Made by a program: the position numbers and the translations under genes
Shown here: piece by piece, positions 5,603-63,814 of the stretch
Layout: each line of letters opens with the position of its first letter
Numbering within the stretch: the stretch's first letter is position 1
Origin: a virus
Taxonomy: Duplodnaviria; Caudoviricetes
IMG/VR virus record: IMGVR_UViG_3300014205_000220
Coordinates: 4,867-68,866 of that record
Direction: 5' to 3' (one strand)
DNA length: 64,000 nt
The notes under the pieces: generated by a model
What the model saw: the letters and a program-made list of their open reading frames with translations, nothing else
Told to the model about the DNA's origin: nothing
The model's database searches: none

Positions 5603-5666
5603 TTTATTAAGTTTTATCTGTTAATTATTTTTAAAATTACATACCCATACACCCAACCGTTATAGC
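5433..5666 (+). repeat. attC-like site 1 (long loop carrying the 5' part of ORF 5327-5602)
   Basis: R'' 5433-5440, inner arms 5446-5469 and 5626-5650 (near-complementary), R' GTTATAGC 5659-5666. Confidence 0.75.
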
Positions 5667-5996: not shown

Positions 5997-6093
5997 GCTA
6001 TAACAAAGTGTATAGCAAATAGCCTATTAATATTCAGTTTTTAATTCGTTGGTTCGTGCTTCGGCTACTTGCCATACACAAACCGTTGTGGTG
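5997..6093 (+). repeat. attC-like site 2 (97 bp, canonical size)
   Basis: R'' 5997-6004, arms gtgtatagcaaatagcc 6008-6024 / ggctacttgccatacac 6063-6079, R' 6085. Confidence 0.85.
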
Positions 6094-6104
6094 CATTAAA
6101 ACGA

Positions 6105-6392
6105 CACCACAACACGGTATATAAATAATAAATAATGCTAATCAACATCGTGCTTCAAACACTCGCCATTGGTATGTTTTATATATTGGCGTTTAGTCAT
6201 ATTAGCAATCCATCTATCATCCCTACACGCAGGGTTTTTACAATATTTTTGGTTTCCAGAATCCATTTCAAATTCTTCATTGCACCAAATACAGTTCTTT
6301 AAAATACCTGCTTCGCTTATGTTTTCGTGTTTGTGTTGAAAATATCCCATATCGCATTATTTACTATTCATATACCATCTACGTTATAAGCT
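6105..6392 (+). repeat. attC-like site 3 enclosing the complete ORF 6138-6350
   Basis: 23-nt arms 6116-6138 and 6354-6376, complementary at 21 of 23 positions; R' 6383. Confidence 0.8.
6138..6350 (-). CDS. Cassette 3 small zinc-binding protein (inside the attC loop)
   Basis: CIWC...YCKNPAC motif. Confidence 0.65.
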   Translation of the reverse strand: MGYFQHKHENISEAGILKNCIWCNEEFEMDSGNQKYCKNPACRDDRWIANMTKRQYIKHTNGECLKHDVD

Positions 6393-12205: not shown

Positions 12206-12293
12206 TACTACGTGTTAAAAGAAGTGCAGCAGGACGTAGTACCTCATTGAATCAGACCGCTAAATCTGAACTGCACTGTAATTTACAAAATTA
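12206..12293 (-). promoter_or_regulatory. Promoter (-7 TAATTTTG at 12286-12293) and structured leader with interleaved inverted repeats
   Basis: tactacgt 12206/acgtagta 12234, gtgcag 12224/ctgcac 12271, tcaga 12252/tctga 12265. Confidence 0.55.
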
Positions 12294-12297
12294 ATAA

Positions 12298-13122
12298 TTA
12301 ATTACCATAAGAATCAAATATTTTTTTAAGGTAATCCTTATCAATAGCTGAATAGACATTGTAACTTGATGAATGTCCGAAACGGTTTGTGAAACGAACC
12401 CTTTCACGGGTTGCAATATTTTTCATAAGGTCGGATTCAATCTCCGAAAGCCTTGTTTGGAATTTAAAGAACATAGAATCGTTAATAACGAACTTTAAAC
12501 TGATTGCGTCAAAGGTAATTAAATACCAAATCGCTAATTGATGTTGATTTTTAGGTTTCATGGTTTATGTGTGTTATTTGTTATTTAAGTTTTATCCTAT
12601 CCATATTAATTTATTGCTATCGCCTAAATCATATAGTTGGTTTAAGTAGTCGTTAAAGAATTCTTGAAAATCTCCATCAAAACCATTATGAATCCCAATT
12701 TTTGGATTTTATAGTTCCGTCTGCTAAATTTTTTAAAAATTCAAAGTTATCTACTAAAGTTTCCAATTCATAGAAAATAGTATCTCCATCATCAGAAGTT
12801 TCATATTTTTTAAGTATTGGGTTTAATTGTCTTAAAAGCTCGTTACATAACTTAACTATAAGTTCTTTACTAGTTTCATCTTCAAATAGATGTTTTATTT
12901 TAATTTTGTGCTTCCATTGTTTCATAATTTCTGTGTTATTTAAAGTTGATTTTTAAGGTCTAAATGATGTCCTCTTTCAAAGTACTTGCGTTCTGCCGGA
13001 AGTAGGTCTTTATCTCCGCGAATAAATCCTTTCACGAATGTTATGGCTACCTCTACGCCATCTTCACGGAATATGTAGTAGGTTTCTTGGTTTTGGCAAA
13101 TTGCGGTTGTTACGATCATCAA
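12298..13122 (-). CDS. Three small hypothetical ORFs (12298-12561, 12686-12925, 12940-13122)
   Basis: ORF track, co-oriented. Confidence 0.6.
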
Positions 13123-13562
13123 AATTCAAGTGTTATTTCTTCGTTAGGCTTTGGAATTTCAGTATTAAAGAAATCCTTTGCAAGTGTTCTGCAACGCTCG
13201 TAGAATGTTTCCGCTTCGGTTGTAGTGTTCTCTGTACTTCGTTTCGTTCTCCTTAAAACTTCTCCAGTCTTTTCGTTTACAAGTTCTTCGTAATTACAGT
13301 TGGTCAACAAAAATTCGTGTACCCTTTCAATACTCCATAGTTCAGCCCATTCTTCTTTTATTGCATTTTGGAATATTGGAACGATACACGAAAAATAATA
13401 TTTGTTCTGTTGATTTGACCGTTTATTAGAACGCTTTTTGAACGCAACATCTATCGTATGCCCTTCGTAATGCTCTAAAATCTGTTTTATTAGATTTAGG
13501 TTTGACGCAAATTTTCCGTTTGTAATCTTAACAGGTATTTGGATAGATGATGCTACTTTCAT
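13119..13562 (-). CDS. ninB: NinB-like recombination protein
   Basis: KRSNKRSNQQNKYYF...RSTENTTTEAETFYE pattern in a lambdoid recombination context. Confidence 0.65.
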   Translation of the reverse strand: MKVASSIQIPVKITNGKFASNLNLIKQILEHYEGHTIDVAFKKRSNKRSNQQNKYYFSCIVPIFQNAIKEEWAELWSIERVHEFLLTNCNYEELVNEKTGEVLRRTKRSTENTTTEAETFYERCRTLAKDFFNTEIPKPNEEITLEF

Positions 13563-13563
13563 T

Positions 13564-14067
13564 TCAATTGATTTTTAGATTCAAGTGGTTTTCCAATCTG
13601 CAACCATCAACCTCTAAACCACTTTCGAGTGCCTTTTTGATGGCTACTTTATTCGGTGCTTCGGTTACTTTTACGGTCTTATACTCTTTAGGAAGTTGAT
13701 TGACCATATCTTCATCCACTTCTACCGATGTAGATTTTCTTGTGCCAAAAGAAGTCAACCCTACTTCAAAGTTTCCAAATGTTTTTACCGCTGAAAGTAA
13801 GTTGTCTTTTAATCGGTCAACAATGTTGTTGTTTCGTTTCTTCATCGCTTGAAGTCTTTTGACCTCGTTGTCGATTAAGTCGTTCATAGCATCTTTTGTT
13901 GAAATAACAGTTAAATAAGCGATGCTTTTCTGTTTTAGGTTGGATTCGTTCAATGCGAGTTTTTCTTCCATTTCTTCTGTAAGCTCTCCCTCCATTGCTT
14001 CGATTTCCATAATCAACATCCGTTGTTCTTCGTTGATGTCGTAAAGTGATTGTTTTGTAGTTTCCAT
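13564..14067 (-). CDS. Siphovirus Gp157-family protein
   Basis: SLYDI...EVKRLQAMKKR...RKSTSVEVDE...PNKVAIKKALESGLEVDGCRL. Confidence 0.85.
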   Translation of the reverse strand: METTKQSLYDINEEQRMLIMEIEAMEGELTEEMEEKLALNESNLKQKSIAYLTVISTKDAMNDLIDNEVKRLQAMKKRNNNIVDRLKDNLLSAVKTFGNFEVGLTSFGTRKSTSVEVDEDMVNQLPKEYKTVKVTEAPNKVAIKKALESGLEVDGCRLENHLNLKIN

Positions 14068-14101
14068 TGTTTATAATTTTTAAGATTTATTAATTGTTTG
14101 G

Positions 14102-14197
14102 TTATAGTCGGATATTGTTTATTGGTGATTGAATTTTACTATACCCTCTACGTTTCATTTCCTGAATGAATTTGGTTTTGTGTTCAGACGTGTTCAT
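14102..14197 (-). pseudogene. Internally deleted tyrosine integrase (IntI-like) remnant, 31 aa
   Basis: Manual translation MNTSEHKTKFIQEMKRRGYSKIQSPINNIRL*. The first part resembles an integrase N-terminal SAM-like start and the last part resembles the IntI C-terminal I.SPL motif. It points away from the adjacent cassette array. Confidence 0.55.
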
Positions 14198-14387
14198 GTT
14201 TTTATATTGGTTTTATTAGTGTTTTAAGATGTTGAATACATATAATAGTTATAGTTAATGCCTTACTCGAACGCTTTATAAAAAAGGCACTAACAATAAC
14301 ACCGTGTATAAAGCAGTCTTTAGGTCGTTTCATTTCTGCAATCTCATTTCCTTTCCCGATGAAAAAACAAAAAGCCATTGCGCTTTT

Positions 14388-14804
14388 TTAGTTACTTACG
14401 GTTAATTCCTCTCCCTCAAAAAAATAAAATAGGTTTTGCAATTGATGAACGTATTTTATAAGAAACTCAATATCGCAATTGGCTATTTTGAAAATTTCAC
14501 AATCAAAGACGCCTATTCTTTTGTTTTCCCAAACAAGGCTAAAACTGTTTTCTTTAAATCCTAGTTTCTTTAACCAATCTTCGGTTAAAATTATTCCCTC
14601 AAAACTTTCAAAAATTTCAACGTTTGTATCTTTAGTTTCAATCCAGATTGAATGAGTTGTATATCCAACATAATCTAATAAAACGACTTGGCCTACTGCC
14701 TTATCCATTACTAATTCAGAGTTTTCATAATCCCAATCACATTCAAGGCCTTTCTCATAATTTCCAACTACGTAGTTACCTATTCTTAATTCGTTTGTTT
14801 TCAT
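14388..14804 (-). CDS. Hypothetical phage protein (MKTNELRIGNYV...KYVHQLQNLFY family)
   Basis: Probable start is the ATG at 14804; common Bacteroidota phage motif. Confidence 0.75.
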   Translation of the reverse strand: MKTNELRIGNYVVGNYEKGLECDWDYENSELVMDKAVGQVVLLDYVGYTTHSIWIETKDTNVEIFESFEGIILTEDWLKKLGFKENSFSLVWENKRIGVFDCEIFKIANCDIEFLIKYVHQLQNLFYFFEGEELTVSN

Positions 14805-14808
14805 GTTT

Positions 14809-15090
14809 TTAATTGTAAATTCCTTTTTTTGCATCGCCTAAAGTTTCATACCACAAATCTTTAGTTTCTTCATCAACATTCCACCAAATAATATCTTCTT
14901 TTTCCTTTTCAATTTTTTTAATTTCCTTTTCTGAAAGTCCTTTTTTTAATTCCTCAATGAGTGATAATATTTTTTGATTTTCCATTTTGTTATTAATTTT
15001 TAGAGTTATTACTGTGTCGCATTTTGACATACATATTTGAAAATAACCTCTTTGGTTTCCAATAGTCTTCCATTCGTGATTACATTTCAT
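14809..15090 (-). CDS. Hypothetical protein (probable start MKCNHEW)
   Basis: The track ORF extends to 15177 across the att arm; the first ATG inside the loop is at 15090. Confidence 0.55.
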   Translation of the reverse strand: MKCNHEWKTIGNQRGYFQICMSKCDTVITLKINNKMENQKILSLIEELKKGLSEKEIKKIEKEKEDIIWWNVDEETKDLWYETLGDAKKGIYN

Positions 15091-15194
15091 ATTTAGTCTT
15101 TTAATTGCACTTCTATTTTTTTTTTTGGCTGTTTTGCCGAGTTGATTTTTAGCCCAGACCGCTTCATACACGATCAACGTTGTAGGTAATAAGC

Positions 15195-15437
15195 CTACTC
15201 ACTTTCTGCTACAATTGGAGATACATAAACAACAATGCTGTCGTAGTTTTCCAATTCTGTCGATATATGATGGCAAACATTTTCAACTAAAAATGCCCTT
15301 GTACCAAACTCGTTTTTCCGCTCCCAATTATATGGTAACATCCATATCGTTTCCCCAATTCTTGGCACATAGTTTTTTGTCGATGTTCCAATTGATTCTT
15401 CAGAGTTTTCTAATTCTACAATAAATTCAATATTCAT
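15195..15437 (-). CDS. Cassette 7 hypothetical protein
   Basis: ORF between R' 15179 and R'' 15482. Confidence 0.7.
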   Translation of the reverse strand: MNIEFIVELENSEESIGTSTKNYVPRIGETIWMLPYNWERKNEFGTRAFLVENVCHHISTELENYDSIVVYVSPIVAESE

Positions 15438-15481
15438 AATTTCAGTTTTTAGTTTTTAGTTTTCAAATCCGTAGGCTTACA

Positions 15482-15534
15482 TACCTACAACAATGTATAA
15501 ACGGCATTAAAACGACCGTTTATACTCACCGTTA
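15482..15534 (+). repeat. attC-like site 7 (minimal, 53 bp)
   Basis: TACCTACAAC-aat-GTATAAACGG-cattaaaacga-CCGTTTATAC-tcacc-GTTA. Confidence 0.85.
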
Positions 15535-16050
15535 AGTTACATCCATTTCATAAACATCGACTTCATAGCCTTTGTTCCTTTTAGCAAATTCGTTTACGTG
15601 AAATTCAAGGCTCATAGAGTGACCTATTTTGAGTTTCAGTAGTTTGTAAAGTTCTCTTTTGTCGATTTGCTCCCCATTGAGCCACGCTTTGTAGAAGTAG
15701 CCGTAATTGGTTATAGAAACTTTTAATTTCTGCGGTTCTGAATTTACGTGTTCTGCGTAAAGATGACCTGACATATCAATATCGAAGTTCTGTTGTCTTA
15801 ATTCGTCGAATGATTCTCTTGTTGCTCCCATTGTGTGTTATTTATGTGTTATTAAATTATAAAACGATACTAAACGTGCGTGATACGGTAAAAAAAGTTT
15901 ATTCCCCTTATTGCTCAATAAAGCGTTTATATGAGATTCAGCGAACGTTCTCTGATTTTCTACGATAGTACATTGATCCAATCTTATCGGTTCGTTACTG
16001 AACTCTGTATGCTCTACAAAGTGTATTAATTGTTTAAGTGTTGGGTTCAA
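15532..16050 (-). CDS. Two hypothetical ORFs (15532-15831, 15838-16050)
   Basis: ORF track. The stop of the first overlaps the GTTA core at 15531. Confidence 0.65.
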
Positions 16051-16965: not shown

Positions 16966-17640
16966 TTATTTTGTTTTTGCTTTCAGTTCTTCAATCCTCA
17001 ATACGATGTTGCCTTCTTGGTCTTCTGTCATATCGTAGTATGCAAGTGCTTTCTCCAACTTTGTAAAGTCTTCAAGTTCCATTGCTTCGTCGTACTTTGC
17101 TTGTGGCATTTTAGGTTTCGCTTTTGGCTGTGGTGCAACTGTTTTTGGTGGCTCTGTTGTTTTTGGCGTATCGTGTTCATCACTATGTTTTGTGTCGGTG
17201 TCGTCAATCTTTCCAACAGGTGTAAGGAACGTGTAAAGAAGTACGTTTTTAAGTGCGTATGTCGTTGCCTTGGCGGATCCCTTGTCTTGCGGGTCAATTC
17301 CGTGACCATATCCAGCTAACTCTTGACTTTCTCCACTTTCGTGTAAAAGAAGATATTTAGTGGTTACTTTAGTGAAAACACTTTGTTTTGTTTTTGTGGC
17401 TTTTGGCGTTTCTTTACTCCATTGGTCAACTTCTTCCCATCTGTCTATGTGTGTTGATTCTTCGATTCCGATAGGTAGAATACAAAGACCGTGTTTAGCC
17501 ATTGCATCGTTAAAAACTTCTTTGACGTCCTTGTCTTTTGTACCGTCATAAGCACTGTTTCCTACGCCTATTCGACTGTTCTTTTCCATTCCTTTTACTT
17601 CTTTCATTACCGCTATAACGGCTTTTGCTAAATTTTTCAT
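16966..17640 (-). CDS. erf: ERF-family single-strand annealing protein
   Basis: GYGHGIDPQDKGSAKATTYALKNVLLYTFL...DDTD. Confidence 0.9.
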   Translation of the reverse strand: MKNLAKAVIAVMKEVKGMEKNSRIGVGNSAYDGTKDKDVKEVFNDAMAKHGLCILPIGIEESTHIDRWEEVDQWSKETPKATKTKQSVFTKVTTKYLLLHESGESQELAGYGHGIDPQDKGSAKATTYALKNVLLYTFLTPVGKIDDTDTKHSDEHDTPKTTEPPKTVAPQPKAKPKMPQAKYDEAMELEDFTKLEKALAYYDMTEDQEGNIVLRIEELKAKTK

Positions 17641-62066: not shown

Positions 62067-63814
62067 TTTTTTAGTGTTTTTGAATTACCGTGGTATAATT
62101 GAAATGCGCCTAATATTGTTGCGTTAAATTCAAATATTTCTTCCAAAGAATAATGTTCGTTGTTTCTTTTGATATATTGCCTAATTCCATCTAACATAGT
62201 TTGATTACGCCTGCTATCAAAAATACTTTGCCTTAAATCAATAGATTTTAATATTTCTTCTTTTTTCATAATCTATGATTTTTTAGTGTAGAAGCACACG
62301 AGGACAATACGAGTGCCTCTCTCAATCTTACTCGGAAACTTTGCGTGGAATTGATTGCTTGAATAGGTAAGCATACGATTTGGTACACTTGTGATTATAT
62401 CCTTTATCTGCCACTTTAAAGGGTCGTTGCTATCTTCCTTTAGTAACTTGTCAAATTCTTCGTTAGAAATGTTCTCTGGAAGTTCTCTTTTATAGTAATT
62501 GTGAGAATAAAAGGCTGTCCCGTTCTTTGAAACATCTTCTTCGTTGTTTATATAAAGTACCGATGCGAGGGCTGTTTTATGACCGTTAATCAAATTATCA
62601 GCGTGTATAGATGGCGTGGTGTTGTGATTTTTGTCTGCCATCCGAATAAACGAAAGCACAAGTTCGTGTCCACTGAATTGCAATAAAGGAATCAATTCTT
62701 TGGGTGTTTCAAGAACAAAGAAGTCTTTACCCTCTGTTTCTACTTTCTGAAACTCATTGTTGTTACAGTAGTCTTGTAATGCTTTGAATGTTTCGGTTGT
62801 AAAGTATTGGTCTTGTACGAAAATCATACGTTTTTTATATAAGAATTTATGCACTTTGTTCTTTTGGATTGTGCAATATCCATAATTCTTTCAGCATCAA
62901 AAATCAATAACGCTTGTTTCATAACGTTATAAACATCTGCTAATTCAGAATACATTTCTGATTCAATTTGCTCTTTATCTTTGGTAGAGCAAAGTGATTT
63001 AAGAATTACAGTAGCTAATTCACTACATTCTTCACCAATTTTAATAATTTGCTTATCTTTTCCAAAATGGTCTAAAATAAGCTGTGATTCTTCTCTAATG
63101 TTATCTTTCATAGTTTCTATATTTTTGGTAAATCATTACTCTCACTACCAACAATCTCATATTCAAAGTTTATTTCCTTTGTTAGTTCCGTTAGTTGAGG
63201 TATTGTTTTTCTATCACTTGCTACTCTATAACCTTTACTCATTCCTATTGGTATGAGGTTCATCTTCTTTAAAGGGAAGTGTCTGCCACTGATTATTGAA
63301 GGTAGTCTGTAAAGCTGTTCGTTCTTCCATCCGTAGGTAATTCCTTTGTAGGTGAATCCGTATTTGAATGTTTGTTTCATGTGTTTAATTTTAAATTTTT
63401 ATATGATTAAGCGTAAAACCCACTGATGCCGACAGGCTCGGTGGGGAAAAATGACAATTCTTCTGTCATTGTAAACTTGCCGTTTTCAACTGCATTTTTA
63501 AAACGTTCGATGTTTGTTTATGTTTTCATTGGTTGTATTTTATAAGTGATTATACACAGTAGTTATATGCAAATGTATAAAGGGTCGTACTTATCACAAT
63601 CTATGTCAAGGCAATATAAACCCATCCCCCCATTTAAATATTCTACTTCTACATTATGTATGTCTGTAGCAATCCCTGTAATTATCCCAATATTGCCATC
63701 AGTATCTTTTACTTTGGTCTGTAATTTTACATCAGCATATAACAATGGGTATAATCCATTACTTTTTTTATATCCTCGCTTCAGTAATCTTAAAAATGTT
63801 CTTACACTTATCAT
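62063..63814 (-). CDS. Other small hypothetical ORFs (62063-62269, 63117-63380, 63563-63814)
   Basis: ORF track. Confidence 0.55.
62273..62854 (-). CDS. 2OG-Fe(II) oxygenase
   Basis: HAD (HxD)...VLYIN...GTAFY...NRML...FH...RIVLVCF. Confidence 0.85.
   Translation of the reverse strand: MHKFLYKKRMIFVQDQYFTTETFKALQDYCNNNEFQKVETEGKDFFVLETPKELIPLLQFSGHELVLSFIRMADKNHNTTPSIHADNLINGHKTALASVLYINNEEDVSKNGTAFYSHNYYKRELPENISNEEFDKLLKEDSNDPLKWQIKDIITSVPNRMLTYSSNQFHAKFPSKIERGTRIVLVCFYTKKS
62824..63111 (-). CDS. MazG-like NTP pyrophosphohydrolase
   Basis: QIIKIGEECSEL...ELADV. Confidence 0.8.
   Translation of the reverse strand: MKDNIREESQLILDHFGKDKQIIKIGEECSELATVILKSLCSTKDKEQIESEMYSELADVYNVMKQALLIFDAERIMDIAQSKRTKCINSYIKNV

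Follow-up and report, generated by a model that had tools for sequence, protein, structure and literature searches.

A 31-codon open reading frame (ORF) on the minus strand at 14102–14197 of the window, by which we mean the whole analyzed stretch of 64,000 nucleotides, is probably what remains of the gene for the short Xer-like tyrosine recombinase of the adjoining cassette array. Given this origin, we lean towards a single in-frame internal deletion, which would have fused codon 19 with the final seven codons of the gene. The ORF, with its ATG at 14195–14197 and its stop codon TAA at 14102–14104, lies beyond the terminal hairpin of the array, in a genome of 68.9 kb that contains no recombinase domain (PF00589). 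Comparison of the DNA upstream of the ORF with complete systems of Bacteroidota phages revealed that, as judged from sequence, the terminal hairpin, the conserved box and the leader are homologous to the recombinase-proximal stretch of those systems (Table 1).

The first-pass annotation had proposed that a recombinase gene once stood here and was then gutted, and this core idea was upheld by the upstream homology, by the in-register ATG and by the match of the heptapeptide SKIQSPI to the end of the recombinases. It had also reported the 31-codon ORF reading leftward from 14197, which was recovered with exactly the translation given, and a GTT core at 14248 about 50 bp away, which is indeed separated from the ATG by 50 nt (14198–14247).

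Table 1 Features of the terminal hairpin, the 31-codon ORF and array 2
Feature	Position	Strand	Basis or remark
Family-loop sites in the window	6085–6113; 15495–15525		11-nt loop, covarying stems, AAC/GTT flanks
Terminal hairpin, 5' arm (gene-sense)	14284–14300	-	starts with GTT on the sense strand; pairs 15/17 with 14248–14264
Terminal hairpin, loop (19 nt)	14265–14283	-	relatives usually have the 11-nt TCGTTTTAATG here
Terminal hairpin, 3' arm	14248–14264	-	sense end ...ATAAC; inside the nhmmer alignment to the recombinase-proximal region
Conserved recombinase-proximal box	14230–14252	-	AAC, TATTATAT-type run, second AAC
Leader, box to start codon	14198–14229	-	homologue of the recombinase 5' leader
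Codons 1–19, putative diverged recombinase N-terminal stub (start of SAM-like core-binding domain)	14141–14197	-	YS register, PSSM
Codons 20–26 (SKIQSPI), putative last seven codons of the recombinase gene	14120–14140	-	amino-acid and DNA PSSM
Five read-through codons and present stop	14102–14119	-	family stop position now AAC
Rest of array 2	14303–15531	-	between orf99 (15532–15831) and the Gp157-like gene (13564–14067)
Array 2 arms around two ORFs	14304–14318 / 15157–15171	-	pair 13/15
Array 2 arms around the 80-aa ORF	15179–15198 / 15471–15491	-
Array 2 canonical hairpin	15495–15525	-	with the family loop

Genomic setting and the hairpin site family

The IMG/VR record is that of a 68,866-bp phage with direct terminal repeats, and its sole named relative is the flavobacterial Tenacibaculum phage Gundel_1, the match extending over the NinB gene. 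The neighboring recombination module includes genes for an ERF-type annealing protein (16966–17640), a Gp157/Gam-like protein (13564–14067) and NinB (13119–13562). Read on the minus strand, the array beside the ORF (array 2) begins at 15531 and ends with the hairpin at 14300–14248, after which comes the ORF. The genes at 14388–15831 around the ORF are all located on the minus strand; the ORF is therefore not divergent from them as genes, and the divergence claimed in the first pass holds only in the sense that the ORF reads away from the array. Searches for tyrosine-recombinase domains gave none in Gundel_1 or in three IMG/VR relatives. tblastn with seven recombinases against the genome gave nothing significant and nothing at the ORF locus, and the family protein HMM had no match in the genome, its best score (8.3 bits) being away from the ORF. 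In eight related contigs the Gp157-like gene is directly adjoined by an annealing-protein gene or by a small ORF, with no recombinase at that place in any of them. A protein 95% identical to the Gp157-like protein (P0007, Logan) is encoded on a contig of 5,353 bp.

Array 2 (14068–15531) has been inserted between orf99 and the Gp157-like gene, which lie directly side by side in three metagenome contigs (L010–L012); a 37-aa ORF of these contigs shows homology to the start of orf99. Gundel_1 (L001) carries a C5 cytosine methylase in the slot matching array 2. Palindromes of the form GTAGG...CCTAC, in opposite orientation at 15182–15198 and 15471–15488 (2 matches versus 0.1 expected), bracket the 80-aa ORF (15195–15437) and are the inner parts of the GTT and AAC arms of its cassette.

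The sites of the array belong to a family characterized by the 11-nt loop TCGTTTTAATG (sense strand), which occurs twice in the window (at 6094 and 15505). A scan of IMG/VR revealed this loop in more than 110 contigs, and in more than 60 of them it lies within a hairpin that has covarying stems of 9–12 bp, with AAC and GTT at its flanks. The site family is hence a genuine one, and it is widespread. In addition, single genes are enclosed by inverted repeats at 5659/5990, 6383/6698 and 6830/7254. The pairs have a GTTAYA start in common, behind which each has its own sequence, and the arms at 14248/14284 resemble these repeats. The generic count of GTT...AAC inverted repeats (25 versus 9–21 in shuffles) was not clearly above expectation; only the specific site family stands out, not the generic repeats. 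An Rfam search of the hairpin sites gave no match.

In the arm pairs 5659/5990, 6383/6698, 6830/7254, 14248/14284 and 14304/15157, almost every mismatch places A against C in plus-strand reading. Since this corresponds to G-T wobble on the sense strand, the sense strand folds better, and for 14246–14302 the folding energy was -9.1 kcal/mol on the sense strand versus -8.1 kcal/mol. It may therefore be one particular strand, or the RNA, that folds. Toward the right end of the genome, 63562–63576 and 63729–63743 form a GTT...AAC inverted repeat of the same style with 13/15 positions paired; this repeat (63562–63743) gave a weak box-like match (nhmmer E 0.68), and 63543–63743 may be a third site.

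Complete systems and the recombinase-proximal element

One site-bearing IMG/VR record contains a gene for a 267-aa recombinase that is preceded by a row of small ORFs on the same strand, with such sites between them. This recombinase consists of a SAM-like domain (PF13495) and a catalytic domain (PF00589, residues 115–257), and it has more than 7,900 relatives at E <1e-10, the top matches listed being nearly all 263–268 aa long. The recombinases found at array ends form a family of Xer-like tyrosine recombinases of 265–268 aa, a full-length example being the 267-aa gene product of IMGVR_UViG_3300012031_000016. Analysis of the exact loops in 42 viral recombinase loci showed that 53/53 were upstream of the recombinase and co-oriented with it, and 99% of the upstream coding sequence and ORFs in 27 complete loci were on the strand of the recombinase; the order is therefore cassette array, terminal hairpin and recombinase, all on one strand. 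A complete system thus comprises one- or two-gene cassettes between AAC...GTT hairpins, a terminal hairpin, the box, a leader of about 50 nt and the recombinase gene, and the layout of hairpin, box and leader is common to both recombinase subfamilies. Full-text searches, a limited check, found no literature description of this phage system.

Recombinases were rare among the site-bearing IMG/VR records. A PF00589 gene anywhere in the record was present in 6/50 and a tyrosine recombinase was absent from 44/50; among records at least 90% complete, 2/10 had a tyrosine recombinase. Only 2/6 of the recombinase-bearing records had the recombinase within about 2 kb of a site. Most phage arrays with such sites are orphans.

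The bacterial relatives of the short recombinase (L337–L416; 38–58% identity) came almost all from Bacteroidota, including Flavobacteriaceae, Cytophagales, Bacteroidales and others. The box was found upstream of the gene in the three closest only. In several of the bacterial relatives the loop has the opposite orientation, suggesting that other arrangements exist in chromosomes.

The DNA in front of the 31-codon ORF was compared with the corresponding stretch of the complete systems. The first-pass annotation had found no upstream partner hairpin for the GTT at 14248. No partner lies to the left of this GTT; in plus-strand reading it forms the outer tip of a 17-nt arm, which pairs with the arm on its other side. 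Folded as single-stranded DNA, the minus strand of this terminal hairpin reached -9.1 kcal/mol (z -4.6), and none of 200 shuffles was as good. The complete systems have the same architecture of GTT-arm, loop and AAC-arm directly before the box.

Profiles of recombinase-upstream DNA had their best nhmmer match in the genome at 14204–14303 on the minus strand, with E-values of 0.0068 for the full-length profile and 0.027 and 0.024 for shorter profiles; these values are modest, and in this AT-rich DNA they include a large correction for composition bias. The box, which precedes the recombinase ATG in both subfamilies, was the part of these alignments with the highest confidence. In the window its exact 16-mer TAACTATTATATGTAT is unique (14236–14251), and so is the leader motif AATAAAACCAATA just before the ATG. 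Over the 69 nt ending at the ATG (14195–14263), identity to the family was 66% on average and 77% at most, and the alignment score had a z of 5.5 versus random genome segments. The spacing from AAC to ATG is 50 nt here versus 51–52 nt in 21/29 family loci, and the ATG of the ORF is in register with the recombinase ATG of the family. Since the profile match, the identity, the box, the leader, the spacing and the layout agree, the attI-like site postulated in the first pass is supported, as a homologue of the recombinase-proximal element. The box at 14230–14252 is a candidate attI-like half-site and/or promoter. The Bacteroidota promoter pattern was not enriched and was absent at the ORF locus.

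A 58-codon ORF (14202–14378, minus strand), listed by the IMG, Logan and ENA gene callers, overlaps the terminal hairpin. No relatives of the 58-aa product were found and its codon usage is poor; it is therefore probably no gene.

Compared with the complete systems of Bacteroidota phages, the locus shares the site family and the hairpin and box about 50 nt before the ATG at the downstream end of the array. It differs in two respects: those systems contain an intact recombinase with SAM-like and catalytic domains, whereas only the 31-codon stub is present here, and their terminal hairpins have arms of about 9 nt and an 11-nt loop, whereas the present one has 17-nt arms and a 19-nt loop.

The coding part of the stub

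The N-terminus of the recombinase family consists of 17–21 residues ending in Tyr-Ser, and in the ORF Tyr-Ser occupies residues 19–20; Tyr 19 is in register with the subfamily of the 267-aa enzyme, and Ser is codon 20. Scoring of the ORF N-terminus with the family PSSM, anchored and with no alignment freedom, gave p = 0.035. The 13 residues up to Tyr-Ser were in the top 0.13% of all 13-mers in six frames of the genome, and a broad N-terminal HMM ranked the ORF 73 of 7,600 ORF starts. The fit of the first 22 residues to the N-terminus of the family is weak (p about 0.01). At the DNA level, no similarity to the family was detected over the first 57 coding nt, and the N-terminal evidence is therefore suggestive only. 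The family protein HMM, run against all six-frame fragments, placed the ORF at rank 128 with 0.5 bits, the match not being at the N-terminus. A tblastn match to residues 5–22 of the ORF (E 0.26) was rejected because it falls within a 406-aa protein of L129 and L018 that is unrelated.

Comparison with the other end of the recombinases revealed a match of SKIQSPI (codons 20–26) to the last seven residues of the family, with a PSSM score of +11.8 bits and p = 2.2e-5 per position; this segment was chosen post hoc, and the value becomes about 5e-4 to 5e-3 after correction for positions and segment lengths. At the DNA level, the 21-nt PSSM placed codons 20–26 at rank 3 of 137,692 genome positions, with a score in the range that the family members themselves reach, and 17/21 nt were identical to the gene end in L150. 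The codon for Ser 20 is AGT, as at the C-terminal Ser-Lys of the family, whereas the N-terminal Tyr-Ser of the family uses TCN; the junction is therefore placed between codons 19 and 20. The first-pass annotation had read the ORF as the two joined ends of an integrase. A C-terminal piece anchored at the stop of the ORF was not supported: the stop codon of the family is gone and the frame continues for five more codons, which is why aligning the C-terminus at the present stop gave no signal (p = 0.32). Full-length recombinases at the same relative position, which the first-pass annotation had suggested looking for, do exist (265–268 aa). A 3'-end DNA profile that included the flank had no match here, the 3' flanks of the family being themselves variable, and an unbiased two-segment composite statistic gave p = 0.62. 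Note that all p-values for the coding part come from short segments in AT-rich DNA.

If the ORF is a remnant of the recombinase gene, the phage would have kept the terminal hairpin (14248–14300), the box (14230–14252), the leader and the in-register start codon, together with about 19 diverged N-terminal codons and, in the same frame, the last 7 codons. About 240 codons between them, including all catalytic residues, would have been deleted, and loss of the old recombinase stop would have let the frame run five codons further.

The same evidence has to be weighed against the reading that only the site, the box and the leader are conserved and that the 31-codon frame arose by accident or is some tiny gene of other origin. 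Its resemblances to both ends of the recombinase would then be coincidental, the recombinase gene having been lost entirely, as in L237, or never having been present. We regard this as unlikely, although several observations agree with it. The 31-codon ORF by itself is not beyond chance, since minus-strand ATG ORFs of at least 31 codons occurred in 24% of simulated 320-nt gaps of the same composition, and its codon usage is ambiguous. The N-terminal p-values are just 0.01–0.06 and lack DNA similarity beside them, and the heptapeptide test was post hoc. Moreover, in L092 a box-like match is followed by an unrelated HTH gene, and L237 retains hairpin and box with no stub. However, this reading leaves aside that the ATG is in register with that of the family, and that the heptapeptide matches in protein and in DNA, in the same frame and within 60 nt of the N-terminal stub. 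It is also opposed by unmistakable recombinase stubs at the equivalent place in four other loci, all on enzyme-less phage contigs. Behind the box, the stub of L099 (10036–10096) has lost its start, contains an internal stop and breaks off after about 19 codons; L088 has a 21-codon frame (12288–12338) that belongs to the second subfamily; L292 has 14 codons (4664); and L326 has about 17 codons (minus strand, 2742). Gutting of the gene with retention of the upstream site therefore recurs. A common breakpoint for all stubs was considered and dropped, as the breaks range over codons 14–21.

Initially, we took the frame for an accidental ORF or an orphan, situated in a variable gap within the module of ERF, Gp157-like and NinB genes, and this was abandoned once the site family and the recombinase had been found. 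That the ORF is a genuine small orphan early gene of the phage, in the variable slot upstream of the Gp157-like gene and unrelated to the cassettes, we consider very improbable. Phage early regions are full of tiny genes, relatives have ORFs of 37–92 aa directly upstream of the Gp157-like gene, and IMG's gene caller did call the 31-codon ORF. Those ORFs of the relatives are, however, unrelated to it, and no homologue of any length was found. Searches with the 31-aa product gave no significant match in Pfam, PHROGs, NCBIfam or PDB sequences, and among 1.84 billion representative proteins they returned only the ORF itself and two repeat proteins, a eukaryotic-type one and one with repeats of about 30 aa, which were judged repeat-driven noise and dismissed; the 90% cluster of the ORF is a singleton. 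Homologues of the same length with an unrelated function, which the first-pass annotation had named as the observation that would speak against it, were thus absent from these 1.84 billion proteins. A small orphan gene would also leave unexplained the homology of the 66 nt upstream to the recombinase leader.

Relation to integrons and rAID-1, and the fate of the arrays

At first, the remnant of an integron integrase had been proposed. That the ORF is the relic of a classical IntI with attI and attC sites is extremely improbable. Its geometry does fit, in that the recombinase points away from a row of hairpin sites whose cores are AAC/GTT, and CALINs have been reported in virulent phages, for example the Polaribacter phage P12002L (Qi et al. 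2023, PMC9892861). The enzyme does not fit. At 265–268 aa (267 aa for the reference recombinase), the full-length relatives reached 152.6 bits against the integron-integrase model TIGR02249, whose cut-off is 265, with an alignment in two stretches of which the first ends at model position 205 of 315; against NF011946 they reached 100 bits (cut-off 435), and the 267-aa recombinase is below every NCBIfam cut-off. IntI requires a specific insertion in the catalytic domain (PMC8138268). Nor was the integron layout borne out, since the recombinase is downstream of the cassette genes and co-directional with them, the cassette genes pointing towards it and not away.

The likeness to integrons and CALINs is nevertheless considerable. 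Both have rows of promoter-less one-gene units with imperfect hairpin sites and AAC...GTT cores, and a cassette-specific complementarity that spans each cassette, as expected with crossover at GTT. In both, a simple tyrosine recombinase stands beside a special end site and reads away from the array, and enzyme-less arrays are common. The differences concern the enzyme, which in the phages is short, Xer-like and below the integron-integrase cut-off, and the gene order, as intI is divergent from the Pc-expressed cassette genes whereas the phage recombinase lies downstream on the same strand. In addition, many phage sites carry the conserved 11-nt loop, and some phage cassette genes lie inside the hairpin loop. 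The attC sites of integrons are defined as imperfect hairpins with R''/L''/L'/R' boxes and AAC...GTT cores; the phage sites form hairpins that have AAC/GTT flanks and covarying stems. By enzyme score, gene order and strand, all read from sequence, the phage system appears integron-like and is no member of the integrons.

A second comparison is with rAID-1 of Bacteroidales, in which a XerD-like recombinase at the 5' end is followed by at least two co-directional downstream genes of low G+C content, with repetitive intergenic sequences that were described as reminiscent of integrons (10.1101/471110). rAID-1 (Ross et al. 2019) and the phage system share the bacterial phylum, a XerD-family tyrosine recombinase, a co-directional row of small genes and repetitive intergenic sequences. 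In rAID-1, however, the genes are downstream of the recombinase, whereas the loops and cassettes of the phage system are upstream in 53/53 cases; and rAID-1 is chromosomal with immunity genes, whereas the phage system is located in the recombination and early-gene region.

With regard to function, the product of the ORF does not contain the catalytic R-K-H-R-H/W-Y residues. The parts that were presumably retained correspond to family residues 1–19 and the last 7, and they exclude the core of the catalytic domain (115–257); with this domain missing, the remnant cannot be catalytic. We infer that the N-terminal codons derive from the recombinase and that the peptide is functionless. The two arrays of the phage would therefore be frozen, or moved only by a recombinase acting in trans, from the host or from a co-infecting phage. 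Action in trans is possible because relatives of the enzyme, at 38–58% identity, are common in Bacteroidota genomes. Beyond this, we tentatively entertain, while holding it doubtful, that the stub and the perfectly kept box mark an end site that is still usable and that enzyme-less lytic Bacteroidota phages swap cassettes by means of recombinases of hosts or co-infecting phages; the loss that keeps a stub of 14–21 codons would then be a recurrent and perhaps site-driven step in an undescribed, integron-like network of gene sharing across phages.

The stub itself is dead, and what gives the locus its value is the cassette system as a whole, together with the system's life history. Little has been learned about integron-like systems other than those with IntI: the evidence for rAID-1 comes from comparative genomics only, and phage CALINs were tested with IntI1 only. 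A defined pair of sites and a family of small recombinases make the mechanism directly testable. If the remnant reading is true, an orphan phage cassette array would be tied to the enzyme that built it, and there would be a concrete recombinase-proximal site, composed of hairpin, box and leader, to set against the cassette sites. It would also suggest that enzyme-less phage arrays arise from complete systems via deletion of the recombinase gene.
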